Source: Candidatus Omnitrophota bacterium (GTDB lineage Bacteria > Omnitrophota > Gorgyraeia > Zapsychrales > Aceulaceae). Taken from it: DNA of 64,000 nucleotides. The notes under the pieces were generated by a model, which was not told the DNA's origin, ran no database searches, and worked only from the letters and a program-made list of their open reading frames with translations. The stretch is taken from contig JAKQPK010000075.1 in the NCBI GenBank assembly GCA_029564765.1, positions 4,603 to 68,602 on the forward strand, in the 5' to 3' direction. The first letter of the stretch is position 1, and the number at the start of each line of letters is the position of its first letter. Made by a program: the position numbers and the translations under genes. Below, piece after piece: positions 8,704-56,018 of this stretch.

Positions 8704-8711
8704 AATAATTA

Positions 8712-8864
8712 AAAATTCAAAAGTCAAACGTCAAAATTAAAAGATGAGAAAAAAGTAAAAAGAAAGGCGCTAAATTCGCCGATGTTTTGGCGTTAGTATT
8801 CAGCGAAATGAACAACATAGTAACTGTTGTTGATCATTGTTTTTATTTTTGACTTTTGAATTTT
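8712..8864. repeat. MITE-like non-coding element bounded by a perfect 17-bp inverted repeat 'aaaattcaaaagtcaaa'/'tttgacttttgaatttt'
   Basis: The IR arms are about 120 bp apart and enclose internal hairpins ('aacaaca-tagtaac-tgttgtt'). The same 'aaagtcaaa' terminal motif bounds the element at 10699-10802 and the four-helix-bundle cassette at 28814-29287. Confidence 0.55.
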
Positions 8865-8879
8865 AAATTTTGGATCACT

Positions 8880-9927: not shown

Positions 9928-10340
9928 AATTTGATATTCGCAGTATTTCTTCGACAGGATGTGCTGTTGAAGGTTTCTTGAAACAAGAAGATTTTTGTGT
10001 TCGTATTCATGAGATCGAATGCCTTGCGCCTATTCAGCTTTCCGGCAGAATAGAAAAAACTTCAGCAATGGTCAGAGCGCAGATCAATGTAAAAACAGTC
10101 TTTCGTTATATATGTGGCCGCTGCCTAGAAACGTGTGATAAAGAGTTTTGTGAGCATCTTGATCTTCATTATCCTGTTGAGTCGCAAGAGAACTACATTG
10201 ATATCGGCGAAGATGTTCGCCAGGAGATCCTGCTGGGATTCCCGGACCGCGTCGTGTGTCAAGACCAATGCAAGGGCTTGTGTCCAAGGTGCGGCGTGAA
10301 TTTAAATCAGGAACAGTGCGGGTGCGGAAAGAATGAGTAA
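9924..10340 (+). CDS. yceD: DUF177 / YceD-family protein (large-subunit ribosomal accumulation protein), located upstream of rpmF
   Basis: Conserved position before rpmF-plsX. CxxC...CxxC pattern 'CGRCLE...CPRCGVNLN'. Confidence 0.7.
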   Translation: MKFDIRSISSTGCAVEGFLKQEDFCVRIHEIECLAPIQLSGRIEKTSAMVRAQINVKTVFRYICGRCLETCDKEFCEHLDLHYPVESQENYIDIGEDVRQEILLGFPDRVVCQDQCKGLCPRCGVNLNQEQCGCGKNE

Positions 10341-10492
10341 GGGGGTAAAGGATTAAAGGATTTCAGGGCTTAAGGTTTATTGGGTTGACTCAAAGAACTC
10401 AGCAAACCCTATAAATTTTGTGAATTCTTTATTCCTCTAACCCTATAACCTTTTAACCTTTTATCAATTTACTTTTAAAATAGGAGCCTAAT

Positions 10493-12801: not shown

Positions 12802-13728
12802 ATGATAAATGTGGCATTGATTTTTCCAGGTCAGGGCGCTCAAAAGGTGGGCATGGGAAAGGAGTTGTACGATGCGATCCCAGCGGCCAAAGCTATTTTT
12901 GATTCTGCTCAGGCAACACTCGGCAATGACCTTCTTGATGTTATTTTTAATGGGCCCCAGGAAAAGCTGACACTTACATCCTACTCACAGCCGGCGATCG
13001 TTTCTTGCAGTATCGCAGGATTAAAGGCGCTTCAAGCGCATCCGAAATTTGGCGAGCTGAAGATCGCTTTTACGGCTGGACTTAGCTTGGGGGAATATTC
13101 GGCCTTGATCGCATCTGGAGCGCTCTCTTTTGAGGATGGTATTCGCTTGGTGCAAAAACGCGGCGCTTTTATGGATGAAGCCTGCAAGCTGCAACAAGGT
13201 GCCATGGCGGCCATTATCGGATTTCCTAAGGACAGGCTCAAAGAGATCTGCCGCGAAACCGGAGCGCAAGTCGCTAACTTTAATTCTCCAGAACAGATCG
13301 TCATTACAGGTCATGCTGACAAGGTCCAGGCTGCTGTTTCCGCGATCGAAAAAGAAAATCCAAAGAATATCGTTATGCTTGAAGTGGCCGGAGGATTTCA
13401 TTCAAGCCTGATGAAGTCTGCCGCGGAAAAGTTTTCTGCGGAGCTTTCAAAATTTAATTTGCAGACATTGAGCATCCCCCTCGTTGGCAACGTCAAAGGT
13501 GTGGCCGAAACAGATCCTGAAATCATCCGCCAAAACCTGCCTTTACAGATCACCTCATCTGTTCTCTGGGAAGATTCTGTCCGTTTTATGGCCGCGCAAG
13601 GTGTGAAGTATTTCATTGAGATCGGCCCTGGCAAGATCCTCAAAGGCCTTATTCGTCGTATCGATCCTACGTTAACTGTCTTTAACATTGAGAAGCCGCA
13701 GGATATAGAAACAGTATTTAGCATTTAG
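12802..13728 (+). CDS. fabD: Malonyl-CoA:ACP transacylase
   Basis: 'ALIFPGQGAQKVGMG', active-site 'GLSLGEYSAL'. The ATG at 12802 is chosen over the ORF-track's upstream extension at 12685, which overlaps fabH. Confidence 0.9.
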   Translation: MINVALIFPGQGAQKVGMGKELYDAIPAAKAIFDSAQATLGNDLLDVIFNGPQEKLTLTSYSQPAIVSCSIAGLKALQAHPKFGELKIAFTAGLSLGEYSALIASGALSFEDGIRLVQKRGAFMDEACKLQQGAMAAIIGFPKDRLKEICRETGAQVANFNSPEQIVITGHADKVQAAVSAIEKENPKNIVMLEVAGGFHSSLMKSAAEKFSAELSKFNLQTLSIPLVGNVKGVAETDPEIIRQNLPLQITSSVLWEDSVRFMAAQGVKYFIEIGPGKILKGLIRRIDPTLTVFNIEKPQDIETVFSI

Positions 13729-13877
13729 TCTTTAGTGTTTAGCTTTTGCCGACCTATCGAAATACTGTTTGAAGATACTAGATATTTTTCATTTTTCCCG
13801 CCAAAGATTTTCCATATTTTTAATGAATCACTGATATAAACTATGTATACTAATATATATTTATATATAAGGACGTT

Positions 13878-14312: not shown

Positions 14313-15538
14313 TTAAACAAAAAAAAGACGAACGACGTGTCGTGGTCACAGGCTTAGGCGTTGTTTCGTCTATTGGTATTGGCTGGCAGGAATTCTGGAA
14401 AAACCTTCTCGCTGGAAAATCCGGTATCAGCAAGATCACTTCATTTGACACATCCTCCTACGACCGTCACTATGGCGGTGAAGTCAAAGATTTTAATCCC
14501 TATAAATTTATTGATAAGCGAAAAGCGGACCGTATGGGCCGGGCTTCACAGATGGCTATTGCTAGCTGTAATCTTGCATTATCTGACGCAGATTTCTCTT
14601 TTGCAAGAGTTGGCAGAAGAAAGGTGGGGGTTTTTATCGGTACCACAACAGGAGAAATTGCACGCCTAGAGCAATACTACAAGACTTGGCATAGCACGAA
14701 CAAAAAAATACCAGTTCCTATGAACCTAATTACTTTTCCAACCTATTGCCTAAGCTCACATGTTAGTAGATATTTTCGGCTTTCTGGACCAAGCGTGGTT
14801 TTTTCTAATGCATGCGCTGCCGGGAATTATGCCATTGGTTACGCGTATGATTTGATAAAGAATGGGCGTATTGAACTTGCTATCGCTGGCGGAGTTGATG
14901 GCATTTCAAATATTGTGTTTACTGGCTTTAGTCGTTTATTAGCTATAGCTCCAGAAAAATGTCAACCTTTTGATAAGGATAGAAAAGGGATGATTCCTGG
15001 GGAGGGGTCTGGAATTCTTTTTCTGGAGAATTTAGATAGCGCATTAAAGAGAAAAGCTAGAATCTATGCTGAAATTTATGGATATGGTCTTTCTTGCGAT
15101 GGCCATCATATGACAAGCCCTTCTCCTGACGGAGTAGTTCTTTCAATAAAGAAATGTTTAGATGCTTCAGGAGTCTGTTGCGATGCTGTAGATTATGTCA
15201 GCGCTCATGGGACCGGTACAATAGAGAATGATCGATTGGAATGCCAAGCTATAAAAACTATTTTTGGGGCACGGCGGAGAAAAATTCCCGTATCATCTAT
15301 TAAGTCTATGATTGGTCATTGCATGGGAGCATCTTCTGCGATAGAGGCGATTACATGTTGTCTTGCGATAAAAGATCAAAAGATTCCACCAACAATTGGT
15401 TTTAACGAAAAAGATCCTGATTGTGATATTGATTGCGTTCCAAATAAATCCCGAGAAGCAAAAGTAGGCGTTGTTTTGAACAATTCGCTAGCATTTGGTG
15501 GTAATAACGCTAGCTTGCTATTAGGAAAAAGAAAATGA
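14309..15538 (+). CDS. Beta-ketoacyl-ACP synthase (KAS I/II-like condensing enzyme)
   Basis: Catalytic triad context 'SNACAAGNYAIGYA', 'SAHGTGT', 'GHCMGASS'. 409 aa. Overlaps its neighbours by 4 nt. Confidence 0.8.
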   Translation: MIKQKKDERRVVVTGLGVVSSIGIGWQEFWKNLLAGKSGISKITSFDTSSYDRHYGGEVKDFNPYKFIDKRKADRMGRASQMAIASCNLALSDADFSFARVGRRKVGVFIGTTTGEIARLEQYYKTWHSTNKKIPVPMNLITFPTYCLSSHVSRYFRLSGPSVVFSNACAAGNYAIGYAYDLIKNGRIELAIAGGVDGISNIVFTGFSRLLAIAPEKCQPFDKDRKGMIPGEGSGILFLENLDSALKRKARIYAEIYGYGLSCDGHHMTSPSPDGVVLSIKKCLDASGVCCDAVDYVSAHGTGTIENDRLECQAIKTIFGARRRKIPVSSIKSMIGHCMGASSAIEAITCCLAIKDQKIPPTIGFNEKDPDCDIDCVPNKSREAKVGVVLNNSLAFGGNNASLLLGKRK

Positions 15539-18241: not shown

Positions 18242-20434
18242 ATGGCTCAATCATTTAGTTTATTGCGAATACTTTTTATCTTATCTGGCCTTACGCTGTC
18301 CCTAACCTGTTTCGCGCTTCTTTTTATAATTTTAAAATTTGGAAGAACCAAATTAACAAAAGTTTGGGCTTGTTTTAATTTATCAGTCTTTGTTTGGGGA
18401 TTAGGTGTTTCGATGATTGGGTTTGCGAAAAATGATAGCGAAGCTTGGTTAGCTTGGAAGATTGGTCATGCGGGAGCGATTTTTATTGCTGGAACGTTCT
18501 TTCACGTCGTCAGCGTCCTGACTGATAAGGGGTTGCGGCGCTTTATCGCAGTTGTTTATAGCTATTCTTGTGTTTTCTTGCTTTTGAATATCCTAGATCA
18601 ACTTAATATCAGTATCATTGAAAAATTTGATGGAATATATTTTATATTTCCAGAAAACTTTTTGTACCCATTCTTAATTACAGCTTGGGTGGTAATCGTT
18701 TTATTTGCATTCATTATTTTAATACAATCTTTGCGGACTGTCAGCCAAAGATTATACAATCAGCTTCGGTATTTTCTGATTGGGACGACAGTCGGATTTC
18801 TTGGCGGTCTTAGCAATTTTCTCCCAATGTTTAATGTAAACATTTATCCTTTAGGAAATTTTTTGATATCATTTTATTGTTGTTTCTGCAGCTATGCAAT
18901 CTTGAGGCATCGCCTTATGGATGTCAGCATTGCGATAACTCGGACGGGGATTTTTGTTTTAGTCTATTCGCTCGTTCTTGGCATCCCTTTTGCCATCGCT
19001 TTCGGACTGAAAGATTATTTATTTTCTATTCTTGGAAATATTTGGTGGATTATTCCTTTATTTGCCTCAACCATGCTGGGCACTGCTGGGCCATATCTTT
19101 ATTTCTTTATCCAGCGCAAGGCAGAAGAAAAGTTATTAGCCGACCAAAAGCGCTACCAATCGACCTTAAAGCAAGCGTCGGCAGGCATGACGCGTATCAA
19201 GGACCTAAAAAAGCTTTTAAATTTGATCGTCTATATTCTCTCTAGAACGGTTAATCTAACGCATGCATCTCTGTATCTCTACAATCCAAAAAGTCGTGAC
19301 TATACCCTTGAGGCTGTGAGAGGCGAGAAGCTTTCGAAGAAGAATTATTACATTAGCCGTCGCTGTGCGTTGATTGATTATCTGGAAAAAGCAAAGCTGC
19401 CTATCGTAGCTGAAGAGATCAAGCAGCAAAGTCAAGATTACAACAATGAAAACTTGAAAGAAGTCTACGCGCAGCTTAAGGAAATTGGCGCGGAAGTTGC
19501 TGTTCCGATCCTTACGGAAAAGCGCTTGTTGGCAATAGGTGTTCTCGGTAAAAAAAATACAGGATCGATGTATACACCGGATGACTTGACAGTTTTCTCA
19601 ATTCTGGCAAGCCAGGTCGCGCTTGCTATCGAAAACGCTCAGTTCTACGAAGAGTCCAAACAGACCCAGGAACAACTTTTCCAGGCGGAAAAAATGGCGA
19701 CGATCGGCACGATGGCTGACGGCCTGTCACATCAGATCAATAATCGTCTACATACGCTTGGCTTTATTGCCGGAGACGCTTTGGACACCATCAACCTGAG
19801 CAAGGATGTTCAGGATCCTTCAAGGTTCCAGTCGATCTTGGCCGAAATATCCAAAGCACTTGTAAAGATCCAGGAAAATGTCCGTCAAGGCGGCGAGATC
19901 GTTCAAGGATTATTGCGCTATACGCGAAAAGGCCAGGAAGGCTTTGGGGAGGTGGTCTTTGACAAGCTTGTCGATGAAGTTGTTGAGATGGCGCAATTCA
20001 AGATCAAAAAAGAATATGTGGCGATCGTTAAGGACTATCCTCAAGATCTGCCTGGGATCCATGGGAATTTTACGCAGCTGCAAGAAGTCTTTTTTAATAT
20101 CATTGATAACGCGTATGACGCGATCATGCAAAAGAAACATGAGATCGCGGATGAAAATTTTAGCGGCAAGATCAAGATCTCAACTCGCCAGACCGAGAAA
20201 TTTTTGGAGGTCAATGTTCTCGATAACGGCATGGGCGTTAAAGAAGATGACCAGACAAAGCTCTTTACACCATTTTTCACGACAAAAGTGTCAAGTCGTA
20301 AAGGTACGGGATTGGGGCTTTATGTGATCAAGAAGATCGTTGAAGACAACCATCAGGGAGAAGTCTTCATTTCCTCCGAACATAAAGTAGGGACATTGTT
20401 CATTGTCAGGCTACCGATAGGAAAGAAGGGATAA
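18242..20434 (+). CDS. Sensor histidine kinase with a polytopic (7TM-type) N-terminal sensor, a GAF-like region, and HisKA/HATPase
   Basis: About seven N-terminal TM helices. H-box 'DGLSHQINNRLHTL', N-box 'FFNIIDNAYDA', G-box 'GTGLGLYVIKKIV'. Confidence 0.8.
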   Translation: MAQSFSLLRILFILSGLTLSLTCFALLFIILKFGRTKLTKVWACFNLSVFVWGLGVSMIGFAKNDSEAWLAWKIGHAGAIFIAGTFFHVVSVLTDKGLRRFIAVVYSYSCVFLLLNILDQLNISIIEKFDGIYFIFPENFLYPFLITAWVVIVLFAFIILIQSLRTVSQRLYNQLRYFLIGTTVGFLGGLSNFLPMFNVNIYPLGNFLISFYCCFCSYAILRHRLMDVSIAITRTGIFVLVYSLVLGIPFAIAFGLKDYLFSILGNIWWIIPLFASTMLGTAGPYLYFFIQRKAEEKLLADQKRYQSTLKQASAGMTRIKDLKKLLNLIVYILSRTVNLTHASLYLYNPKSRDYTLEAVRGEKLSKKNYYISRRCALIDYLEKAKLPIVAEEIKQQSQDYNNENLKEVYAQLKEIGAEVAVPILTEKRLLAIGVLGKKNTGSMYTPDDLTVFSILASQVALAIENAQFYEESKQTQEQLFQAEKMATIGTMADGLSHQINNRLHTLGFIAGDALDTINLSKDVQDPSRFQSILAEISKALVKIQENVRQGGEIVQGLLRYTRKGQEGFGEVVFDKLVDEVVEMAQFKIKKEYVAIVKDYPQDLPGIHGNFTQLQEVFFNIIDNAYDAIMQKKHEIADENFSGKIKISTRQTEKFLEVNVLDNGMGVKEDDQTKLFTPFFTTKVSSRKGTGLGLYVIKKIVEDNHQGEVFISSEHKVGTLFIVRLPIGKKG

Positions 20435-20459
20435 AGGGGCAAAGGACTAAAGGGTTAAA

Positions 20460-20852
20460 GTGATTGAAAAAAGAAAATTGAAAACATATAAAGATCTTAT
20501 TGCTTGGCAGAAGTCTTACAGTTTGTGCTTAGAAATATATCGGGCAACGAAGATATTCCCGCAATCTGAACAATATGGCCTGACCGCACAAATGAAGCGA
20601 AGCGCCCTTTCCGTTCCGTCAAATATTGCTGAAGGGTATGTGCGGCACGGAACGCGAGACTATATTCGTTTTCTTTATATCGCTTACGCTTCGCTTGCAG
20701 AACTAGAAACACAATTGCTTCTTGCAAAAGATTTGGGATATATTAAATCTGATGACTTTAAGCAGATCATTGGTCTGCAAAACGAGGTTCAGAGGGTTAT
20801 GCGCGGGCTAATCGAGTCGCTTAAATCAAGATCTTCACAAAATGCCCTGTAA
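20460..20852 (+). CDS. Four-helix-bundle protein (23S rRNA intervening-sequence protein family)
   Basis: 'YKDLIAWQKSYSLCLEIYRATKIFPQSEQYGLTAQMKRSALSVPSNIAEGY' is the canonical family signature. Flanked by the 11-bp IR 'agggataaagg'/'cctttatccct'. Confidence 0.85.
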   Translation: MIEKRKLKTYKDLIAWQKSYSLCLEIYRATKIFPQSEQYGLTAQMKRSALSVPSNIAEGYVRHGTRDYIRFLYIAYASLAELETQLLLAKDLGYIKSDDFKQIIGLQNEVQRVMRGLIESLKSRSSQNAL

Positions 20853-20899
20853 TCCTATGATCCTTTATCCCTGTAATCCTATTAATATAAGGACTGCCT

Positions 20900-21259
20900 A
20901 TGCCAAAACTACTTATTGTTGATGATGAAACGGATATCACGGAGTTCGCGAAGCATTTCTTCGAGAAGCGGGGGATCGAGGTAATTACAGCTTCAGGAGG
21001 TCAGGAAGCACTGGATCTGATAAGCTTAAGCAATCCTGATCTCACGCTTTTGGATGTGCGCATGGGAGAGGTTACAGGTGTTGATGTCTTGCGTAAACTT
21101 CGCGAATCAGGTAATATGATGAAAGTTGTCATGGTAACTGGCGTAGAGGATCCCGCTATTATTAAGCAAGCACAAGATCTGGGCATAAGCGGTTTTATAC
21201 ATAAACCCTTAGCCTTGGATGAATTAGAGCGGGTTGTGATGAAGGAATTAGAAGGATAA
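20900..21259 (+). CDS. Stand-alone response-regulator receiver (CheY-like)
   Basis: 'LLIVDDE...D', 'LLDVRMGEVTGVDVL', 'VVMVTG'. 119 aa. Confidence 0.85.
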   Translation: MPKLLIVDDETDITEFAKHFFEKRGIEVITASGGQEALDLISLSNPDLTLLDVRMGEVTGVDVLRKLRESGNMMKVVMVTGVEDPAIIKQAQDLGISGFIHKPLALDELERVVMKELEG

Positions 21260-21333
21260 AAAGTATTTAGTCGATAGTCGTTAGTATTTAGCGCGCTGAC
21301 ACCAGATACTATATACCAACAACTGACACAGCT

Positions 21334-22539
21334 ATGTCACTCAATTACAAAAAAGAACTCGAACGTGCAAGCCGTGTTATGATCCGGATCCATGATCCGA
21401 GCATCTTGATACGTTTGATCATTCGCTTGATCGTGCGCAAGGTTGACGTTAAGCACGCTGGCGTTTTGTTGTTTGACGCTAACCGCGATTGCTACGTTCT
21501 TACTCTCTCAGGCGGGGAGAGCGGGACCCGTATCCCGCAGGGGTTCGCGAAATTTGTTAAAGAAAACCCATTGATCAAATTCTTCGTTGATAAAGAATAT
21601 CAATCGCTTATAAGGCGCCATGGGGCTTTGACCATCGAAGAACTTAACCGCATGATCTGGAGCGAAAATGTCTTGCCGCAGAATGAACAGCATAAAGATT
21701 TCTTGCACAAGATCGCTCAGCAGATGGAGATGTTCAATGTAGCGGTCTGTATCCCAGCGTATTTTCGTGAGCATCTTGTAGCGCTTTTGCTTCTTGGCGA
21801 AAAGACAAACGGACATGTTTATCAGCAGGAAGAGTTTGATTTTCTAGCGGCGCTGTCTTCGGATGTTGCCATGGCCATTCAGAACGCGCGGCTTATTGAG
21901 GATTTGCGCAAAGAAGTTGAGAAGAATAAAGCGCTTTTTATCAACACCGCTCTTTCACTTGCTTCGGCCATAGAGGCTAAAGACCGTTACACACGTGGCC
22001 ATACAGAGCGTGTTACAAAATACGCGTTAGCGATTGCCGATGAGCTTGTACACAACCGCGCCTTTCCTCTTTCGAAAAATTTCTCTGAGGATCTGTACAT
22101 TGCGTCTTTGTTGCATGATGTAGGGAAAATAGGCGTTCCTGAGAGCATCTTGAGCAAAGAAACAGGCCTTACGGACCAGGAATTCCAGCAGATACGTCTA
22201 CATCCGCTAAGAGGAGCCGATATTTTAAAAGCTATTCCGGAATTTGAAGAGTGCCTTAAGGGTGTTAAATATCACCACGAGCGCTATGATGGCCGAGGCT
22301 ATCCGGAGGGCTTAAAAGGCGAAGAGATCCCGCTCGTTGCTGCCATTGTCGCTGTCGCGGATAGCTATGACGCGATGACCTCTGATCGAACTTACCGCAA
22401 AGCCATGTCCAAGGACGCTGCTATAAGCGAGATCGAGAAAAATATAGGTATTCAATTTCATCCGGTGGTGGCAAAGGCGTTTTTGGAGGTGTTGAGGAAA
22501 AGCGAAAAAGAGTTAATAAAAGTTACAAATGGTTACTAG
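21334..22539 (+). CDS. HD-GYP domain phosphodiesterase with N-terminal GAF-like region
   Basis: 'HTERVTKYALAIADEL', 'HDVGKIGVPESIL', 'HHERYDGRGYPEGLKGEEIP'. Confidence 0.85.
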   Translation: MSLNYKKELERASRVMIRIHDPSILIRLIIRLIVRKVDVKHAGVLLFDANRDCYVLTLSGGESGTRIPQGFAKFVKENPLIKFFVDKEYQSLIRRHGALTIEELNRMIWSENVLPQNEQHKDFLHKIAQQMEMFNVAVCIPAYFREHLVALLLLGEKTNGHVYQQEEFDFLAALSSDVAMAIQNARLIEDLRKEVEKNKALFINTALSLASAIEAKDRYTRGHTERVTKYALAIADELVHNRAFPLSKNFSEDLYIASLLHDVGKIGVPESILSKETGLTDQEFQQIRLHPLRGADILKAIPEFEECLKGVKYHHERYDGRGYPEGLKGEEIPLVAAIVAVADSYDAMTSDRTYRKAMSKDAAISEIEKNIGIQFHPVVAKAFLEVLRKSEKELIKVTNGY

Positions 22540-22661
22540 GGGTTACGCTTAAAGCGCGTCTTCCATCTTCCTTCACGGTCTAATTTATATAATGCGTCAA
22601 TAAACCTGTCCATTTGAAAGCATGCGGTTTTGATGAGCGTTGTTATTTTCTTATGGTCTTC

Positions 22662-22934
22662 TTACGGGATCAGGTTATCTTCAAGGCAATCATCCATATC
22701 GCCTCCTAGTTCTTCCAGCGAACCTCTGCTGATTTTGATGGAATGTGCGAATTCACCAACGCTATCTTTTGCATAGCCCTCGCGGATATTCTGCTTTGCG
22801 CTTCTGGCCGCATCGCATATTTGACTTACCAGTCGCAGTCGCGACTTTTGGAAGGCCCCTGTCATTTTATTGATAAGACGCCTGATCTCGCAAACATTCT
22901 TGTAAAATTCCAGATTTTCGTAGGCTCGACCCAT
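22662..22934 (-). CDS. Four-helix-bundle protein (IVS-protein family), short member. The start is uncertain because the ORF extends to 23018 and overlaps the kinase gene's end
   Basis: 'NIREGYAKDSVGEFAHSIKISRGSLEELGGDMD' family-type C-terminal half. Confidence 0.6.
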   Translation of the reverse strand: MGRAYENLEFYKNVCEIRRLINKMTGAFQKSRLRLVSQICDAARSAKQNIREGYAKDSVGEFAHSIKISRGSLEELGGDMDDCLEDNLIP

Positions 22935-22983
22935 AAGGCAACCTTTAGTAACCAATAGTAACTTATCATAACCTTTTAGTAAC

Positions 22984-24600
22984 TCATCTTTTCTTCTTCT
23001 TTCCCGGCAATTCCACAATAAACTTTGTCCCTACTCCCGGCTTGCTTTCCACTAAAATCTTCCCACCATGATCTTTGATGATGCGTTGGGTGATTGAAAG
23101 ACCCAGACCGACACCATGGTCTTTTTTGGTGTAGAAGGGGTCAAAGACGTTTTTTAGGTCTTTTTTAGCGATCCCTGTTCCTGTGTCTTCGATAGATAAC
23201 CGCACATGATCGTTAACTCTATCTACGCTCACTGATAATCTGCCGCCTCTATTCATCGCGTCGATCGCGTTAATAAATATATTCAAGAACGCTTGGCGTA
23301 ATCGGTTTGCATCGGCCGTAAGGCGTATGTTCGCAGAGGGGCTGTAGTTTTGATCGACCGTGATGCTGTGCTTGATAAATTTGCTGCTTAGAAATGCCAG
23401 GGTGTTATCAATGAGGCTTGCCAGATCAACCTCTTTAAGCTGAAGAGGGGATGGCTTAGCAAATTCAAGCAGTTCATGCACCAGGTTATCAATACGTTCC
23501 ACTTCGTGTCCGACAATGCGGGAGAAATTACTCAAGAATTCCTTATCATTCATTTTGCGCGGGAGATATTCTGCAAAGGTTTTGATCGCAGTAAGAGGAT
23601 TTTTGATCTCATGAGCGATGCCGCTTGCAAGAATGCTTATGGATTTTAGCTTTTCAGTCTGCTCGACCTCTTGTTTAAGTCGTTCATTCTCTTTCATGAT
23701 CTCTTCGTGCGTGCCGTGGAAGAATATTCTGTCTATTATTAGATTAATGAAGTTTCGCAGGGGAAAAAATATGATTCCGATAACAAATGATATAGAAACG
23801 CTAAGAATTAAAGATTTGTATCCAACGATCCCCTTGAGAAAGTTTTCGAACAGGATGATGGCAAGAAAGTAGAGAAATGAAATTATAGTTATTAAGACCG
23901 AGTAGACAATACTCTTCTTAATTACAATATTTATATCGAGGAAATGATATTTAAATATGATGTGAGTTATTATAAAAGGTGGTACTAAAATTGCAAAATT
24001 TCCATATGGGTAAATATTTATTCCATACCCCGGTAGAAAATCAAGAGTTCCTCCAGCGAAACCAATGCACGATAGAATCAATCCGAGAATCTGGCTTTTT
24101 TGTTCAACATAAACATTTTTCCAGTATTTGATTAGCAAAAAGTATCCAGCCGAGACAACAGTGAGCCAAGTGATAAACGATAAAGTGTAGTAAGCGCTCC
24201 CTTGATGATAATAGAAAGAATTAAACATAAATTTTGTTGTTGGAAACATTTTATTGTTAACTATGGTGTAGAGAAAATAAAAAGCTTGTCCGTAAATTGC
24301 TATTAGGAGAATTTTTCTTTCTTTTTTAATGAGAATTAAGACTGAATGAAGAAAGAAGACTGCAATAAAGAGTGCTGACGGATAAGCAATTTTCCATATT
24401 GTGAAGGAAAAATTCTGGCTTGTATTAATCCCAATAAAAAAGGATCCAATGCCCCACATGGCGATTGAAAGAATGTGGAAGGAGTAGACAATCGAAAGCT
24501 TTGATTTATTATTGATTAAGATTAGGATGAAAAGAGGAAAATATGCAAACGCAATCAATAATCCTGATATCGCAAAAGGATTTAAGCGGGAAAGGTCCAT
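22984..24600 (-). CDS. Sensor histidine kinase with a 7TM-type N-terminal membrane sensor
   Basis: About seven TM helices, coiled coil, H-box 'SGIAHEIKNPLTAI', 'GVGLGLSITQRII'. N-terminal domain architecture resembles that of the kinase at 18242. Confidence 0.8.
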   Translation of the reverse strand: MDLSRLNPFAISGLLIAFAYFPLFILILINNKSKLSIVYSFHILSIAMWGIGSFFIGINTSQNFSFTIWKIAYPSALFIAVFFLHSVLILIKKERKILLIAIYGQAFYFLYTIVNNKMFPTTKFMFNSFYYHQGSAYYTLSFITWLTVVSAGYFLLIKYWKNVYVEQKSQILGLILSCIGFAGGTLDFLPGYGINIYPYGNFAILVPPFIITHIIFKYHFLDINIVIKKSIVYSVLITIISFLYFLAIILFENFLKGIVGYKSLILSVSISFVIGIIFFPLRNFINLIIDRIFFHGTHEEIMKENERLKQEVEQTEKLKSISILASGIAHEIKNPLTAIKTFAEYLPRKMNDKEFLSNFSRIVGHEVERIDNLVHELLEFAKPSPLQLKEVDLASLIDNTLAFLSSKFIKHSITVDQNYSPSANIRLTADANRLRQAFLNIFINAIDAMNRGGRLSVSVDRVNDHVRLSIEDTGTGIAKKDLKNVFDPFYTKKDHGVGLGLSITQRIIKDHGGKILVESKPGVGTKFIVELPGKKKKR

Positions 24601-24722
24601 TCTTTATGCCTTTAGGTGAATTTTTTTACGGCTTTCAATATCTCATCCGACTTCAACGGTTTTACGATGTATCCACAAGCCCCAAGCTTCGCTACCTCAG
24701 CAGGGCAAAAAATTATTTCGTT

Positions 24723-24968
24723 TCAGGCTTGAGCGACTTTATGCAATATTTCAGAAATGAAAGTCTGGTATTTTATACCGAGCTTTTCCGCTTTTTGTTT
24801 GAGCGTTTTTATATCGTTACTGTTGACGCGAATATTGAGAACTGCGTCTTTTTTGCGCGATTCGATCGCTTGGACGATATCTTTGTGTTCATCCGCGCTG
24901 ACAGGGGTGAACTGCTCAATAGTTTCTTCGATCAGTTTTTCTTCGTGAGTTAACTTTAGTTTTTTCAT
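24723..24968 (-). CDS. brnA: BrnA-like (CopG/RHH-type) antitoxin
   Basis: 81 aa, 'DEHKDIVQAIE...KDAVLNIRVNSNDIKTLKQKAEKLGIKYQTFISEIL'. Its start overlaps the upstream toxin gene by 4 nt. Confidence 0.65.
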   Translation of the reverse strand: MKKLKLTHEEKLIEETIEQFTPVSADEHKDIVQAIESRKKDAVLNIRVNSNDIKTLKQKAEKLGIKYQTFISEILHKVAQA

Positions 24969-25225
24969 AGCTTTTTCCTTTGCCGATAAAATTTTGTTAG
25001 CTTACGGCTTGGATATATTGTTTTTAGGAAGATCTGGCTTCCGTCGTACACAAAAGGGACTGCCCAAAGATAGTTTTTGTGCTCAAAGATCATGATCTGC
25101 TGATGGCTTTTTTCAGGGTGGCGACATATATCCACCAAACGGGTATTGATGATCTCTTCAAAGGATACCCCGCGTGCACGCTTCAGCCGTTGGCTTTTAA
25201 CAGGATTCCAGGTGATCTGTTTCAT
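24965..25225 (-). CDS. brnT: BrnT-like (DUF497) ribonuclease toxin
   Basis: 'ITWNPVKSQRLKRARGVSFEEI' matches the BrnT N-terminal signature. 86 aa. Confidence 0.65.
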   Translation of the reverse strand: MKQITWNPVKSQRLKRARGVSFEEIINTRLVDICRHPEKSHQQIMIFEHKNYLWAVPFVYDGSQIFLKTIYPSRKLTKFYRQRKKL

Positions 25226-25278
25226 CGTTTCGCATGTATATACAATTGTAATACACTAATATCGTATTGTCAAAGAAA

Positions 25279-25638
25279 CTATTTAAGTACGGATTTTACC
25301 TTTTTCAATATTTCATCCGATTTGAACGGCTTGACGATATACCCGCAGGCGCCAAGCTTGACGGCCTCGGCGGCTGTTTCCACGCATTTGTATCCCGTAA
25401 TCATAACGACGGGTAGGGTGGGATATACTTTCTTGATCTCAGCCAAGACCTCTAGCCCGTTCATTTCTGGCATTTTGATATCCATCAGGATAAGCCCGAT
25501 ATCCGGGGCGTTCTTTAGGCAGTCAAGCGCCTGGGCCCCGTCTTCAGTCAATATCAAATTGTAATGGTCGCCTAGAATAAGCTTGAGTGATTCACGCACG
25601 CCGAGTTCATCATCGACAACTAGGATCTTTTTAGACAT
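25279..25638 (-). CDS. Stand-alone response-regulator receiver
   Basis: 'ILVVDDE', 'ILMDIKMPEMNGLEVL', 'VVMITGY', 'GACGYIVKPF'. Confidence 0.85.
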   Translation of the reverse strand: MSKKILVVDDELGVRESLKLILGDHYNLILTEDGAQALDCLKNAPDIGLILMDIKMPEMNGLEVLAEIKKVYPTLPVVMITGYKCVETAAEAVKLGACGYIVKPFKSDEILKKVKSVLK

Positions 25639-25717
25639 AAGGCCTCCGTATTTAGTATCTAGTTGCTAGTATTTAGTCGTTAGTGTTAAGTAGTTAGTTG
25701 TTAGGCTAAAAATCATA

Positions 25718-26086
25718 TTAATCAACAAGGTTAAGTTTTTTGATAAGGTTACGAATCATCTTAGATTCAAACTGAATTTTCTCAATCAAGCGAGTTTTAA
25801 ACTGGTTTTCGATATATTTTAAGTCATAACAAATTTCAAGTTGCGTTTCAAGCTCGGAGCAGGACCCAAGCGCGTGAAAAAGGAATTGTCGATATTCTTT
25901 ATTATGATAACGGCTAAATCCTTCTGCAATATTTGAAGGTATTGAGATTGCGGATCTGCGCATTTGAGAAACAAGAGAAAAGAGTTCTTCTTTTGGAAAT
26001 ATTTTTGTTCTTTCGTATATTTCTAAGACAATATCCTTCCCCAGGCTCCAGATTTTTAGTTCCCTAAAGCTTTTTATCTTATCCAT
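25718..26086 (-). CDS. Four-helix-bundle protein (IVS-protein family)
   Basis: 'IKSFRELKIWSLGKDIVLEIYERTKIFPKEELFSLVSQMRRSAISIPSNIAEGFSR'. Flanked by the perfect 15-bp IR 'gtatttagtatctag'/'ctagatactaaatac'. Confidence 0.85.
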   Translation of the reverse strand: MDKIKSFRELKIWSLGKDIVLEIYERTKIFPKEELFSLVSQMRRSAISIPSNIAEGFSRYHNKEYRQFLFHALGSCSELETQLEICYDLKYIENQFKTRLIEKIQFESKMIRNLIKKLNLVD

Positions 26087-26135
26087 TTTTTCCTCTATCG
26101 ACTAAATGCTAGATACTAAATACGTTTTCTTATTG

Positions 26136-26690
26136 TCATAACCCCACCGGTGTCGCGACGCAGATCAATTTTGTTGTTGTTTTTCCTTTATTCGTAAAGA
26201 TATGGGGCAGGGAAGAATCGAAATAAAGCGTGTTACCCTCAGTAAGGTCATAGGATGTTTCGCTGATCCTTACCGACACCTGTCCCTGGAGAACGAAAAT
26301 AAATTTTTCTGAACCGACCGCGTTTTGCTCTTTATTGGTCGCCCCGCCTGGCTCAATCTTAAGAAGTGTTGGCATCATTTTTTTGCTGAGGACCTTGCTG
26401 GTTAGGATCTCATAGGATGACTTATCGCTATAATTAAAGATATCCGCTTGCGCATCTTTCTTCTGAACCTCGACACGGCTCTCTGACGCTTGGACTGCGA
26501 CATCCTTGTAGAGCTCTGTTAAGTCCACTTCCAGTGCTTTGGCGATCTGCATATGGGATTCCAGGGTTCCAGTCATTTTCTGGTTTTCCATGCGGCTTAA
26601 GGTCGCGATCTGAACGCCACTCTTTTCCGAGAGCTCAGTTAAGGATATTTTCTTTGTCTTGCGAAGCTCCTGCATTCTTTTGCCGATCAA
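26136..26690 (-). CDS. XRE-family HTH transcriptional regulator with C-terminal cupin domain
   Basis: 'IGKRMQELRKTKKISLTELSEKSGVQIATLSRMEN' HTH, followed by a cupin-like C-terminus. Confidence 0.8.
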   Translation of the reverse strand: MIGKRMQELRKTKKISLTELSEKSGVQIATLSRMENQKMTGTLESHMQIAKALEVDLTELYKDVAVQASESRVEVQKKDAQADIFNYSDKSSYEILTSKVLSKKMMPTLLKIEPGGATNKEQNAVGSEKFIFVLQGQVSVRISETSYDLTEGNTLYFDSSLPHIFTNKGKTTTKLICVATPVGL

Positions 26691-26847
26691 GGTATACCTG
26701 CCTTCCTATATATAGGGTGTTTTAAGCACCCAGTTATTCAATAGATAATTAATTACATTAATCATAACATATATTGATGAATAGTCAATATTATATTAAT
26801 TTATTTTCAAATAAAATGATACATTTTGACTGATAATCAAAATTATA

Positions 26848-26876
26848 TTGACAAATCATCAAAGTAATGCTATATT
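26848..26876 (+). promoter_or_regulatory. Sigma70-like promoter (TTGACA-17-TATATT) in the divergent AT-rich region between the XRE-cupin regulator gene and the downstream operon
   Basis: 'ttgacaaatcatcaaagtaatgctatatt'. Nearby direct repeats 'caatattatattaa'/'caaaattatattga' look like operators. Confidence 0.5.
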
Positions 26877-26916
26877 CTGCACTACATCATCCAGGAATTA
26901 AGAAAGAACTTCGCTT

Positions 26917-27156
26917 ATGAACAACTCAAAGAACATTTTCTTTCGCACACAAAATATCGTTGTCATCTACACCGCGCTTCGGATCTTGTTGGCGATGCAA
27001 AAACAGCTTGGCTTAGAAGCGATGCTGGAGTACCGCGGCCAGTATCTACGCTCTATTGAAAGCAGCAATCCTTTGCTTAAACATGCAGTGACACGCGCAT
27101 TATCATTGATCGATGTTGAGAAAATTTACCGGGAGGCATTTCTGAATGAAGCTTAA
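26917..27156 (+). CDS. Hypothetical small protein (79 aa)
   Basis: ORF downstream of the promoter. It overlaps the next start by 11 nt. No homology recognised. Confidence 0.3.
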   Translation: MNNSKNIFFRTQNIVVIYTALRILLAMQKQLGLEAMLEYRGQYLRSIESSNPLLKHAVTRALSLIDVEKIYREAFLNEA

Positions 27157-28789
27157 AATTATCATTTTTGTTAGCTTTGTCATTGTATTGACGATACTGC
27201 TTTATCAAAGATCCTTTGCCCCAAGACCACATATTCAAGCACCGGCTTACGTTGATCCTGTTGCCGAAGAGGCCTCAGCGCCGCCAGCCGTTTGGAAAAA
27301 GATCAGCCACGGAATAAGCGAGACAGAGGTAACTCGAATTGCCATCGCCCCTGATGACGCGAATGCCTTGTTGGTGAGTACGCCGCGGGCGGTTTACAGA
27401 AGCCACGGCATTTCGGGTTACCTTGCTTCGCTTTACCTGGAAGGAAACAAACGCGCGGTTAACGATATTTATACTGACTTTATCCAGAAAGTAGCTTTTA
27501 TCGCAACGGACAAAGGGCTTTTCCAAAGCCGGGACGCAGGAGTTTCATGGCAAAGGATCTATGCCTGCGAAAGGTCTAGGGAAGAAGAATGCTTATCCGT
27601 TGCCATGTTCGAGACAGAAATTTTCTTAGGAACAACGCGTGGCTTATTTGTTCTTAGCAAGGATGAGTCCCGATGGAAAATTTTCCACAGTGTTTTCCAG
27701 GATAAGCCAATTGTTCATATTGCAAAAGATGGACAACATCTTTACATCAGCACAGATCGTGAGGTTTTTCGTATCGAGCCTTTAGGCGGGGATGTTCGAG
27801 AAATATTTTCTGTCCTCTCGCGTGAAAAAGAAGAGAGCGATGATGAAGAAACAACAGGCCTTGCCAGGTCGATCTATGGCATCGCTGTGGCAAGCTCTCG
27901 AGGCCTTTCCAGGATCTGGATAGCATCATCGCGCGGTATATTTGTTTCAAGCGATTTTGGCAGAAGCTGGCAGAGCATTCCTCGCGATAGTATTCCTATT
28001 GGAGAGATCACGAGTCTGACAGCTTGCCGTGACGATCTTTTTATCTCAAGCAGCAAAGGTGCTTACCGTTTCCACAATGGCCAATGGCAAGATCTTCGCG
28101 CGGGTGCTGAAACGCAAAGGTTTTCTCAGATAATTTGCGATCCTTCTGATCGTATTTATGCCGCGACAGACAGGGGAGTTTTTATGCTGGCCTTTGATCA
28201 ACAGCCGTTAGCGTTAGCGGGGGAAGATGTCCTAGAGATCAGAAAACGTATCGATCAAGAGCCAAGTATACAGTCTGTTCACAGGATGGCGATCGAATAC
28301 GCGGAGGTCCATCCACAAAAAATACAGCAGTGGCGCAGCCAGCTGGTTAAAAGGGCTTTGCTTCCCAAGCTTTCTATCAGCGTTGATGGTGATAAGAATA
28401 AAACAATATCTGACAGCGTTTACGGAAGCTACACGAGCGGTGGACAGTCATATATCGGTCCTGATGATAAAACTTTTTATAATAATTTTGGCTGGGGTGT
28501 GTCCGTGTCATGGGACCTGGGGGATTTGGTATGGAATTCCAGCCAAACATCCATCGATACCCGTTCTAAACTCATGGTAGAGCTTCGGGAAGACATTCTT
28601 AATGAAGTGACCCGGCTTTATTTTGAAAGGCGACGGCTTTTAGTACAAAGCGTACAGCCTGCTGCAGGCGAGAGTTCGCTAGTAGAATTAGAAATGCGCG
28701 TCGATGAATTGACAGCGCTGATCGACGCGCTTACAGGGGGAGGGTTTAGCAGGGAAATAGAAAGGGGAAGCAAAGATGATGGAGCCTAG
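27146..28789 (+). CDS. Membrane-anchored protein with BNR/Asp-box (Ycf48/sortilin-like) repeats and a C-terminal coiled coil
   Basis: N-terminal TM helix. Repeated 'SxDxGxSW' motifs ('SRDAGVSWQRI', 'SSDFGRSWQSI'). Confidence 0.5.
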   Translation: MKLKIIIFVSFVIVLTILLYQRSFAPRPHIQAPAYVDPVAEEASAPPAVWKKISHGISETEVTRIAIAPDDANALLVSTPRAVYRSHGISGYLASLYLEGNKRAVNDIYTDFIQKVAFIATDKGLFQSRDAGVSWQRIYACERSREEECLSVAMFETEIFLGTTRGLFVLSKDESRWKIFHSVFQDKPIVHIAKDGQHLYISTDREVFRIEPLGGDVREIFSVLSREKEESDDEETTGLARSIYGIAVASSRGLSRIWIASSRGIFVSSDFGRSWQSIPRDSIPIGEITSLTACRDDLFISSSKGAYRFHNGQWQDLRAGAETQRFSQIICDPSDRIYAATDRGVFMLAFDQQPLALAGEDVLEIRKRIDQEPSIQSVHRMAIEYAEVHPQKIQQWRSQLVKRALLPKLSISVDGDKNKTISDSVYGSYTSGGQSYIGPDDKTFYNNFGWGVSVSWDLGDLVWNSSQTSIDTRSKLMVELREDILNEVTRLYFERRRLLVQSVQPAAGESSLVELEMRVDELTALIDALTGGGFSREIERGSKDDGA

Positions 28790-28886
28790 GACACAACAAA
28801 AACCTAATGAAAGAATTCAAAATTCAAGATTCAAAAGTCAAAATGAAATAAACAAAGTCAAGAAATATAAGAAAGATCTTAAAGAT

Positions 28887-29222
28887 ATGTCGCATAGTCT
28901 TGCTTTGCAGGCCATTGATCTGATCGATAGCCTTCCGAAAAACATGAGCTGTCAAGTTATTGGTAGGCAGCTGTTGAGGTCGTCGATGAGTGTTGGCGCA
29001 AATATCTCGGAAGCTCGGTCGTCGGGGTCAAGGAAAGATTTCGTTAACTTTTTGACATATTCTTTGAAATCCGCTAATGAAAGCATCTTTTGTATAGGAC
29101 TGCTGAGCGATAGTGGTAAGGTTTCTCATTCTAGCTTACAGGTGTTTCGAGCAGGTTTTGATGAGATCGCGCGTATTTTAGCAGCGAGTATTATTAAGCT
29201 TAAACAAAAGGATAGCGATTAG
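28887..29222 (+). CDS. Four-helix-bundle protein (IVS-protein family)
   Basis: 'IDSLPKNMSCQVIGRQLLRSSMSVGANISEARSSGSRKDFVNFL' family signature. The start is moved to Met-38 of the ORF-track protein, because the upstream part is the IR flank 'aattcaaaattcaagattcaaaagtcaaa'. Confidence 0.7.
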   Translation: MSHSLALQAIDLIDSLPKNMSCQVIGRQLLRSSMSVGANISEARSSGSRKDFVNFLTYSLKSANESIFCIGLLSDSGKVSHSSLQVFRAGFDEIARILAASIIKLKQKDSD

Positions 29223-29332
29223 TTTTTTAGTTTGAGCTTTAATTTTTACATGTTTTATTTTGAATTTTGAGTTTTGAATCTTGAATTACGACATGTTTTC
29301 ACTAACGGTGCCGGGAAAAGGAGGGAAAGCGT

Positions 29333-29623
29333 ATGGTGAAGAAAGTATTGTTGATGGTCGCATGTGTATTGTTCTTAGCTGCCAATACTATGGCATTCGC
29401 TGAGGACGTTTACGTCACGGCCAACGGCACAAAGTATCACAAGGCTGATTGCCGGTTCATTAAAGACAGGGAAACCCAAAAGTTGGATAAAAAAGCTGCT
29501 GTTGAGCAGGGCTATGTGCCATGCCAGCGGTGCAGCAAAGAAGATCTGGCTGAGCAAGCGCCAGGATCTGACAGCGAAAAGGTTTCCAAAAGCAAGAAGC
29601 CTAAAGCAAAGAACGAAGGCTAA
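29333..29623 (+). CDS. Small secreted protein with Ada-like Cys/His metal-binding motif
   Basis: Signal peptide, 'TANGTKYHKADCRF...GYVPCQRC', Lys-rich tail. RBS 'aaaaggaggg'. Confidence 0.5.
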   Translation: MVKKVLLMVACVLFLAANTMAFAEDVYVTANGTKYHKADCRFIKDRETQKLDKKAAVEQGYVPCQRCSKEDLAEQAPGSDSEKVSKSKKPKAKNEG

Positions 29624-55294: not shown

Positions 55295-55753
55295 TACGTA
55301 ATCAACATCGAATCATTTTATGATTCACGGCAACCAGACAACCTTTTACTGGCTAACGTCAGCAGTCAGGCTCACGGCTTTGTGCCCTACACTTTCGAGT
55401 AGTTTACCTTTCAGTCTTATGAAAGAGCGAATCACAACATCACCAATAAGAATATAGCATGGTAGAAAGCGTTTTTCAACGTAGGGGTAATAATATAACG
55501 CTTTCTTTAGATTTCATAACAATATATATTACAGGTATTTACGTTATATCAAGAGAAGAATTATATAAATTTTATGCAAAAAGTCTTATGAGCCGCAATT
55601 TGTTCTCTAAATCAGTAATTTTTCGGAAACAGTTAATTGCGCATTCTAAGATTGACTCCCGCTTTATAAAATAGTATCATATCGTACTTAAAAGTTGTTT
55701 CGGGGAAATCTACAGGCCAATTATCCGGAAATAAGCCTGATGTTCTTTTTTGA

Positions 55754-55928
55754 GGAGAAGAGGCAGGCCAATCGCCTGAAGATCAAATTGAATGTTTTAG
55801 GGGAATTGGCACGCACCTTTACCTCTAGGAGAAAGTTTTAGGGAGAAGTGGCAGGCCAATCGCCTGAAGATCAAATTGAATGTTTTAGGGGAATTGGCAC
55901 GCACCTTTACCTCTAGGAGAAAGTTTTA
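55754..55928 (+). repeat. Tandem direct repeat (two units of 87-88 bp), each starting with a copy of the first 13 nt of tRNA-Ser
   Basis: Unit: 'ggagaag(a/t)ggcaggccaatcgcctgaagatcaaattgaatgttttaggggaattggcacgcacctttacctctaggagaaagttttag'. The third copy of 'ggagaagtggcag' is the true tRNA 5' end. Confidence 0.8.
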
Positions 55929-56018
55929 GGGAGAAGTGGCAGAGTGGTTGAATGCGGCGGTCTTGAAAACCGTTAGGGGCCTTGCGGTCCCTCGAGGGTT
56001 CGAATCCTTCCTTCTCCG
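55929..56018 (+). tRNA. tRNA-Ser (anticodon TGA), type II with long variable arm
   Basis: Acceptor 'ggagaag'/'cttctcc', anticodon arm 'gcggt-ctTGAaa-accgt', long variable arm, T-arm 'gaggg-ttcgaat-ccttc', discriminator g. Confidence 0.85.

Follow-up and report, generated by a model that had tools for sequence, protein, structure and literature searches.

Hairpin-bounded cassettes of four-helix-bundle genes in Omnitrophota operon spacers: probable mobile relatives of 23S rRNA intervening sequences

Four small genes encoding four-helix-bundle (4HB) proteins are present within a 64,000-nucleotide (nt) stretch of a Candidatus Omnitrophota bacterium genome (GCA_029564765.1, contig JAKQPK010000075.1, positions 4,603-68,602 of the forward strand). 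This stretch is hereafter called the window, and coordinates are given within it. Each gene is located between protein-coding genes and is enclosed by a pair of inverted repeats, or arms, with which it comprises a cassette. The cassettes, c1 to c4, and their genes are as follows.

20417-20890, plus strand: cassette c1, with arms at 20417-20459 and 20845-20890 and a period of 8
20460-20852, plus strand: 4HB open reading frame (ORF) of c1, intact, 130 amino acids (aa)
22507-22980, minus strand: cassette c2, with arms of GTTAC-containing units at 22507-22546 and 22938-22980
22662-22934, minus strand: 4HB gene of c2, a pseudogene whose frame runs from 22934 to about 22541
25645-26126, minus strand: cassette c3, with arms of 7-nt nnnTTAG/CTAG units at 25645-25712 and 26090-26126
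25718-26086, minus strand: 4HB ORF of c3, intact, 122 aa
28808-29300, plus strand: cassette c4, with arms of 7-nt AATTCAA / TTTTGAA units at 28808-28872 and 29225-29300
28887-29222, plus strand: 4HB ORF of c4, with an alternative start at 28776

A preliminary description of this DNA proposed that the four genes are paralogs, and profile searches bear this out. All four proteins score above the curated cut-offs of Pfam PF05635 (130.8, 51.0, 121.7 and 65.6 bits for c1 to c4; cut-off 33.8) and NCBIfam TIGR02436 (126.6, 45.4, 119.2 and 77.1 bits; cut-off 24). The c1 and c3 proteins are 42% identical, other pairs are much less so, and a tblastn search with the four proteins revealed no fifth copy in the window. 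There is sequence similarity to the PDB entries 2GSC (E 1.6e-27) and 2RLD, both of which were deposited as assemblies of five chains, and c1 as a query retrieves 24,034 cluster representatives at E <= 1e-3. Since c2 has an in-frame TAA at 22662-22664 and its fourth helix continues in the same frame to approximately 22541, it is a pseudogene; the stop codon is found again in independent assemblies. The start of c4 had been moved from 28776 to 28887 in the preliminary description, and the choice between the two is ambiguous, with the Pfam domain beginning at residue 37 of the longer ORF.

An arm is made up of several 7-9-nt units in tandem, and the opposite arm presents their reverse complement. 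In c1, the left arm is formed by the 8-nt units AGGGATAA AGGGGCAA AGGACTAA AGGGTTAA and the right arm by units of the CCTTTATCCC type, and the inverted repeat (20417-20454 / 20845-20882) holds the perfect 11-mers agggataaagg / cctttatccct. The inverted repeat of c2 is found at 22507-22544 / 22940-22977, that of c3 includes a perfect 16-mer (25647-25662 / 26109-26124) within 29-nt arms, and that of c4 has 62-nt arms (28810-28871 / 29237-29298). Around each ORF, the repeats are separated by 365-446 nt. When pairs no more than 600 nt apart are ranked across the window, the repeats of c1 to c4 come out on top together with one ORF-less element at 8707-8869. In RNA folds, the terminal stem closes around the ORF in all four cassettes in both the minimum free energy and the centroid structures (z -3.0 to -4.7). 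Inverted repeats had previously been recognized for c1, c3 and c4 only; the arms of c2 bring the count to four, and the perfect repeat of c3, first given as a 15-mer, is one base longer. The repeats were also described as distinct for each copy. This is true among c1 to c4, which have four unit types and no shared terminal inverted repeat of the kind seen in insertion sequences (IS) or in miniature transposable elements with inverted repeats (MITEs), but the same units recur in related cassettes and relics.

The arms take up the spacers between genes: in c1, the left one begins within the last codons of the kinase gene HK1 (stop at 20434) and the right one finishes 10 nt short of the response-regulator gene RR1 (start at 20900). 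Cassette c2 is found between the stop codons of an HD-GYP gene (22539) and HK2 (22984), and c3 separates a helix-turn-helix (HTH)-cupin regulator gene (stop at 26136) from RR2 (start at 25638). Turning to c4, its neighbors are a 547-aa gene with weak BNR/glycosylhydrolase-like matches only (stop at 28789) and a 96-aa gene (start at 29333). A kinase, receiver or regulator gene therefore adjoins three of the four cassettes and not all of them, as had been proposed, and the link itself is incidental, as these signalling genes also occur with no cassette nearby and cassettes at other loci lie in fab, nrd and cas operons. With respect to the possibility that the repeats are ordinary terminators, no terminator-like match was found on the arms of c1 to c4, which stand about 400 nt apart around the ORF. 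There was no enrichment of promoter-like sites around the cassettes and no integrase among the neighboring genes.

To follow the cassettes over evolutionary time, syntenic blocks anchored on the HD-GYP gene (21334-22539) were compared among seven related Candidatus Omnitrophota genomes. The identity of the HD-GYP protein to that of the window is given in brackets.

Window block: cassettes at all four sites, c1 to c4
L086 block (93%): no c3, with the receiver and HTH-cupin genes 18 nt apart; cassettes at the c1, c2 and c4 sites
L088 block (79%): among the c1 to c4 sites, a 4HB cassette at c1 only; a further cassette between fabH and fabD
L090 block (74%): no 4HB gene; spacers of 6-15 nt
L091 block (67%): cassettes at the fabH/fabD and c3 sites; a 4HB pseudogene between RR1 and the HD-GYP gene; an ORF-less hairpin at the c1 site
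L092/L093 (65%) and L094 (64%) blocks: no 4HB gene

Presence and absence vary from site to site. The empty c3 site of L086 has flanks that are 84-85% identical to those of the window, the c4 site is empty in both L088 and L090, and the fabH/fabD site, occupied in L088 and L091, is empty in the window. In the blocks that have no 4HB gene at all, the spacers measure 6-130 nt. Cassettes come into otherwise empty spacers, right behind the stop codon of the gene upstream. Occupied sites differ as well. While c2 and its L086 counterpart are orthologous (87% aa identity; the L086 copy is truncated at the N-terminus), c1 and the cassette that occupies its site in L086 are only 37% identical between flanking genes that are 75-93% identical, and c4 is 30% identical to its L086 counterpart, which has different arms. 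Closer relatives are found at other sites. The c1 protein is 68% identical to that of the L091 cassette at the c3 site, with AGGnnTAA arm units common to both, and c3 is 64-70% identical to the c1-site cassettes of L086 and L088, with CTAGATAC units in common. Because cassettes at the same site can be unrelated and related types are found at other sites, as judged from protein identities, the block has experienced turnover in the form of gain, replacement and relocation, and not merely loss. A simple nested series of gains (four gains versus eight losses in the first four genomes) had been considered, and was abandoned for turnover after L091 showed cassettes at other sites.

The unit of this turnover is the cassette including its arms. 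When c1 is aligned to the c3-site cassette of L091, nucleotide homology sets in at 20422, in the left arm, continues through the ORF and the right arm and extends into the receiver gene, a paralog at the two sites, which indicates that the arms travel with the gene. No polymorphism is seen within the species, where c1 is 100% identical in five contigs from different samples; contigs of one strain, being identical, are uninformative on turnover. Together with the decay described next, the variable occupancy of orthologous loci, replacement and relocation support the earlier suggestion of a small selfish element.

Besides the four cassettes, the window holds the following hairpins and relics without an ORF.

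8705-8876, plus strand: E5, an ORF-less hairpin with c4-type AATTCAA arms, in the spacer that follows recG and precedes the next gene
10338-10470, plus strand: E6, an ORF-less hairpin with c1-type AAGGATTA / TAACCTTT arms, in the yceD/rpmF spacer
13712-13790, plus strand: E7, a decayed relic with c3-type nnTTTAG heptamers, in the fabD/fabZ spacer
21262-21316, plus strand: E8, a decayed relic with c3-type heptamers (TATTTAG TCGATAG TCGTTAG TATTTAG ... CCAGATACTA), in the RR1/HD-GYP spacer

The left arm of E5 matches that of c4 at 33 of 39 positions, and the terminal stem of E5 closes in the predicted fold (z = -3.4). The yceD/rpmF spacer that contains E6 is empty in L092 and L094, where it is only 30 and 48 nt long, respectively. 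At the fabD/fabZ site of E7, L088 has a full ORF-less hairpin. The E8 site is occupied in L091 by a 4HB pseudogene cassette of the same arm type, with a stop codon within the SIPSNIAEG motif, and in L088 by an ORF-less hairpin, again of the same arm type. At the c1 site, L086 and L088 have full cassettes with GTGAAnn-type arms and in L091 the site holds a perfect hairpin of GTGAAnn heptamers that has no ORF (z = -4.3); a small ORF-less hairpin is also found at the c2 site of L088. Arm unit types are therefore common to related cassettes and ORF-less relics, and a decay series is apparent from the intact cassette to the nonsense mutant, the ORF-less hairpin and finally the relic. One ORF-less hairpin, at 9028-9152 of L091, has a right arm in which the reverse complements of the heptamer variants follow the 5'-to-3' order of the left arm without being mirrored. 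The stem therefore has a mismatch at each variant position, once every 7 nt, a pattern that differs from the product of a simple inverted duplication.

A wider survey asked for c1- and c3-like genes in one genome per species and returned 80 loci from Planctomycetota, Bacteroidota, Acidobacteriota, Patescibacteria, Elusimicrobia, Verrucomicrobiota, Nitrospira and one archaeon. For each locus, a flank score was obtained by aligning the upstream 110 nt to the reverse complement of the downstream 110 nt, with displaced windows as controls. Since duplex-fold energies of the flanks had a background too high to interpret, alignment scores with three controls were relied upon. The median flank score was 35 in the genome loci compared to 15 in the displaced windows, and the 99th percentile of the controls was exceeded in 57 of 77 genome loci and in 50 of 72 independent metagenome loci. 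Only 4% of other genes from the same loci reached the threshold (n=299). Arm arrays in the genome loci have a period of 7 or 8 nt only, mostly in 4-5 copies. Strong upstream arrays are present at 34 of the 80 loci (1.1% of control windows), and wherever both sides have an array the two periods are equal (20/20). The period follows the protein subfamily, being 7 in 28 of 29 loci with c3-like proteins. The units themselves vary by lineage (for example GCCACGAA, GGTCAGT, AGGCAAAG and CGTATCT) and are conserved within lineages. The 20 best loci gave no Rfam match, and none of them contains rRNA. The genes are closely packed against their neighbors, with a median gap of 66 nt upstream and 53 nt downstream, and both neighbors are co-oriented at 47 of 62 loci, where about 58% would be expected. 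Across 148 loci, the flanking repeats are inverted only at 95, inverted and direct at 10, direct only at 8 and not detected at 35. As some loci have only direct arrays or no flanking repeat, the stem is not obligatory.

Individual loci illustrate the range of arrangements. In Balneola, a cassette is kept across the genus at seven loci; in an attempt at covariation analysis, the tandem arms of these seven orthologues paired in shifting registers. A plasmid of Nostoc edaphicum (pNe_5, 259376-259744) has a cassette between ribonucleotide reductase genes with arms of GTAGGGA x8 and TCCCTAC x5, and a Calothrix NIES-22 plasmid provides another clear example in a cultured carrier. Xanthomonas campestris (XCC0516) and Bacteroides thetaiotaomicron are cultured carriers as well. 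Two plasmids of Nostoc sp. PCC 7120, alpha (3776-4126, L177) and gamma (15088-15438, L178), encode the same 4HB protein (WP_010994075.1) in copies with about 91% nucleotide identity over the ORF and 100 nt. Both copies adjoin IS transposases and have CCTCTGC heptamers downstream, and the upstream arm is apparently disrupted by an insertion sequence. On a Pseudanabaena galeata plasmid (NZ_CP112875.1, 46268-46627, L180), the 4HB gene is found between cas6 and cas4 and its heptamer arrays are direct rather than inverted, with AAAGCTA x14 upstream and AAAGCCA x10 downstream. At a Pirellulales locus (L056, 2995-3354), a direct duplication of the whole leader of about 50 nt (TAGGAAGAAGGCAC...GAAGAAGAAGGC) replaces the inverted arm, as either a long target duplication or a different mode of insertion would produce. 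The 4HB family has been reported with a "CRISPR association" (PMC10910872). PADLOC returned nothing meaningful for defence systems, and carriage by phages is unsupported because two scans of viral contigs found no relatives.

The closest known counterparts of the cassettes are the intervening sequences (IVS) of 23S rRNA. RNase III cutting has been shown experimentally for the 23S IVS of Leptospira and Salmonella. In Coxiella burnetii, the IVS is 428 nt in length and comprises an S23p ORF, a 28-bp terminal stem and tandem heptamers (GACAGAT) upstream of the ORF, and it is cut in vitro by the RNase III of both Coxiella and E. coli with ends that map to the middle of the stem (PMC4990558). As of that 2016 study, the origin, mobility and function of the IVS and its S23p ORF were still called unclear (PMC4990558). 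The cassettes resemble the IVS of Leptospira, Coxiella burnetii, Xanthomonas and Brucella in several respects. Both encode an S23p/PF05635 protein in about 430-500 nt, and both place the ORF within complementary termini that form a long stem. The IVS have tandem heptamers on the 5' side, as the cassettes have arrays of period 7-8. In both, the ORF is prone to decay and ORF-less counterparts exist, such as the Salmonella IVS of about 100 nt (PMC4990558). The distribution of the IVS is likewise sporadic, and their mobility has long been suspected (PMC4990558). The cassettes differ in being located in operon spacers and not in helix 9, 25 or 45 of 23S rRNA, and in offering direct comparative evidence of gain, replacement and relocation; excision by RNase III, for its part, has been shown for the rRNA elements only and would extend to the cassettes by analogy. 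The preliminary description noted no insertion in the 23S fragment of the window. This fragment covers model positions 2061-2925 only, with helices 9, 25 and 45 outside, and so cannot show the usual IVS sites. The conclusion itself holds, since a complete 23S gene on the same contig is 2961 nt long against a model of 2925 positions and the organism's 23S rRNA is therefore without an IVS.

Collectively, the observations suggest, with a probability of roughly 0.6, that the four cassettes are members of a large family of small, hairpin-bounded mobile gene cassettes. Read in this way, they would be of one kind with the ORF-containing 23S IVS, housed here in the spacers of protein-coding operons.

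How such a cassette could operate may be sketched from the known behavior of its relatives. Without a promoter of its own, it would be transcribed by read-through from the host operon, and pairing of the two arms in the transcript would enclose the ORF in a stem of some 30-60 bp. This stem may then be cut by RNase III, releasing the 4HB message and leaving the flanking cistrons usable. Since such cutting would leave those cistrons intact, insertions into operons could be tolerated at little cost to the host. The 4HB protein would act as the element's own factor: a pentamer, homologous to the accessory variability determinant (Avd) of diversity-generating retroelements (DGRs), that may bind its own lineage-specific arm repeats. 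This binding is a reasonable proposal because Avd holds RNA stems, the units are conserved within lineages and the arrays contain about 4-5 units. Candidates for the copying step are a host reverse transcriptase of the kind that Avd assists, single-strand hairpin transposition by a Y1/RAYT transposase, and recombination. In its strongest form, the proposal would have the pentamer recognize its own 7-8-nt arm arrays by sequence, each subunit reading one of the typically 4-5 units of an arm, and copy the cassette into new spacers together with a host reverse transcriptase or a Y1 transposase. The cassettes would then be a new class of bacterial mobile element with tens of thousands of members, and the source of ORF-containing 23S IVS and of many heptameric tandem repeats in bacterial genomes that have no explanation so far. 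This stronger form is doubtful at present.

Several observations weigh against the mobile-cassette reading and its RNA-level mechanism. The exchange between the c1 and c3 sites could be a product of recombination through the paralogous response-regulator genes that follow both. No near-identical copies at different sites were found within the Omnitrophota lineage, where the best relocated pairs are 64-70% identical, and a metagenome scan with c3 for recent copies elsewhere gave a best identity of 68%. A target-site duplication is not visible when c3 is compared to the empty site of L086, the spacer having diverged, and the cassette encodes no recombinase or nuclease. The eight of 148 loci with direct arrays only, to which one further Pseudanabaena plasmid locus may be added, and the 35 of 148 without a detectable flanking repeat do not have the expected architecture. 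In 59 stems, mismatches that remain paired as G.U in the sense RNA (74) are no more frequent than those paired in the antisense only (81; p = 0.63). Stem pairing could equally matter at the DNA level and, given the lack of a bias for G.U over A.C, the RNA-level claim rests on analogy to the 23S elements.

This symmetry would suit a DNA-level hairpin, and one alternative takes the hairpins as primary. They would be repeats of the repetitive extragenic palindromic (REP) or REPIN kind, spread by a REP-associated tyrosine (Y1) transposase (RAYT), with the 4HB gene carried along as a passenger or entering the loop secondarily. The window holds at least four ORF-less hairpins or relics and there are several in the relatives, some of them strong (z -4.2 to -5.7). 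A RAYT gene is also encoded in the window at 38114-38641, just downstream of a gene of the RHS type, and was identified by NF047646 (85.5 bits; cut-off 80) as well as by the Pfam Y1_Tnp family. Its product is a possible trans-acting mobiliser of hairpin elements. The cassettes resemble REP/REPIN-RAYT systems and MITEs in being short hairpin-forming intergenic repeats just after stop codons, with ORF-less forms beside coding copies. They are unlike them in that the arms are tandem 7-8-nt arrays that differ between copies of one genome, the enclosed gene is not a transposase and no target-site duplication is seen at c3. Moreover, the arms and the ORF diversify together, the period following the subfamily and the same protein type having the same unit type across sites. 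ORF-less hairpins are found where relatives have a cassette or pseudogene of the same arm type, which argues for loss of the ORF. Such wide differences between arms in a single genome are also awkward for one sequence-specific transposase, and next to the RAYT gene there is a 31-nt x2 tandem repeat but no arm-type unit. A primary role for the hairpins is accordingly unlikely. The 3' end of the RAYT gene extends into that tandem repeat, which is perfect (AAGAAGATAGATAGAAACGCTTTGGGATTTT, 38628-38689).

The cassettes could instead be domesticated operon modules. The host would then select for the stem, whether or not the protein is kept along with it, as a site of RNA processing or insulation by which the expression of neighboring cistrons, such as a kinase and its regulator, is uncoupled. 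Their placement in spacers between co-oriented genes, the conservation of arm units within lineages and the retention of some cassettes genus-wide, as at the seven Balneola loci, would fit such a role. Against it, the same operons do without a cassette in close relatives, where the spacers measure 6-30 nt, pseudogenes and replacement by unrelated cassettes are frequent, and the host contexts (fab, nrd, cas and two-component operons) are mutually unrelated, making domestication quite unlikely. That the 4HB genes are ordinary chromosomal genes tied to the neighboring signalling genes, with repeats that are terminators or chance, is very improbable: although three of the four cassettes do have a kinase, receiver or regulator gene next to them, the arms rank at the top among inverted repeats in the window and are not terminator-like, syntenic relatives differ by presence, absence and replacement, and the pattern is family-wide in unrelated contexts. 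Finally, homology to Avd (PF22296 bAvd at 1e-08 for c1; the PHROG family "Avd protein of DGR" at 6e-13) raises the question of whether the genes are accessory genes of a DGR. The DGR ribonucleoprotein has its Avd pentamer in contact with a stem-loop and with RNA duplexes, and the template lies within a long-range duplex (bioRxiv 10.1101/2023.10.23.563531). The likeness is that of homologous, pentamer-forming four-helix bundles, with Avd acting on an RNA whose distant segments are paired around a core. However, the NCBIfam Avd equivalog NF033474 gives 25.6 bits for c1 and 18.1 for c3 against a cut-off of 80 and no match for c2 and c4. No reverse transcriptase family was found among the genes called on the contig near the cassettes or among the ten largest ORFs scanned in the 38-62 kb portion of the window, and a template/variable repeat pair is not present, the repeats found being the arms themselves. 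In the cassettes, furthermore, the stem encloses the 4HB gene. With its scores below the cut-off and no reverse transcriptase nearby, the DGR assignment was rejected as extremely improbable.

Other systems are instructive by comparison. Integron cassettes differ from those described here, which have repeats on both sides of each ORF instead of a single downstream attC, are separated from one another by housekeeping genes and are not arrayed next to intI. The foldback transposons of eukaryotes likewise have terminal inverted repeats composed of short tandem subrepeats; these elements are much larger and encode unrelated proteins, and the resemblance is an analogy only. Heptameric tandem repeats are known from cyanobacteria (short tandemly repeated repetitive sequences, STRR), from Xanthomonas and Nostoc as GGGAATC and GGGGAYT (PMC4692102), and from Beggiatoaceae as TAACTGA (PMC4679880). 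They are intergenic, often of four units and, in Xanthomonas, often found as convergent pairs. In the passages searched, unlike here, the repeats are treated as free-standing and without a link to an enclosed 4HB gene.

The region has other features of note. Between HK2 and RR2, two small genes of 81 and 86 aa (24723-25225, minus strand) comprise a second kind of indel in the block, being absent from L086 and L090 where the HK2-RR2 gap is 4-11 nt; the 81-aa protein has a weak BrnA-antitoxin match. Right after c4 and the 96-aa gene, a gene of 2619 aa (29713-37572) encodes an SpvB/TcdB/RHS-YD-shell toxin-like protein that is kept in all syntenic relatives. Farther downstream, an 88-nt x2.1 tandem repeat with 99% matches (55754-55942) runs into a tRNA gene (55930-56018), and a cyclic di-GMP-I riboswitch is found on the minus strand at 55326-55418, about 350 nt upstream.

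The origin, mobility and function of the 23S IVS and the S23p ORF have been a standing question since the early 1990s. An extra-ribosomal cassette of this kind has apparently gone undescribed: the architecture was not found in the searchable literature, of which coverage was incomplete and the early-1990s work on Leptospira was outside reach. What that literature offers is work on the rRNA IVS and on Avd, reports of heptameric repeats in Xanthomonas, Nostoc and Beggiatoaceae, and passing mentions of the protein. The 23S rRNA elements now appear to be the small visible part of a very large family whose typical members are stem-bounded cassettes in operon spacers. In the Omnitrophota blocks, these cassettes can be seen arriving, being replaced and decaying. 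Since Nostoc and Calothrix plasmids carry clear cassettes, the proposal is testable in cultured cyanobacteria. Hitch-hiking of the cassette, as between cas6 and cas4 in Pseudanabaena, could explain why the family takes on a "CRISPR-associated" or "immune-island" appearance in surveys. The cassettes are also a candidate explanation for over-represented heptameric repeats, and they may provide an evolutionary context for the Avd protein of diversity-generating retroelements.

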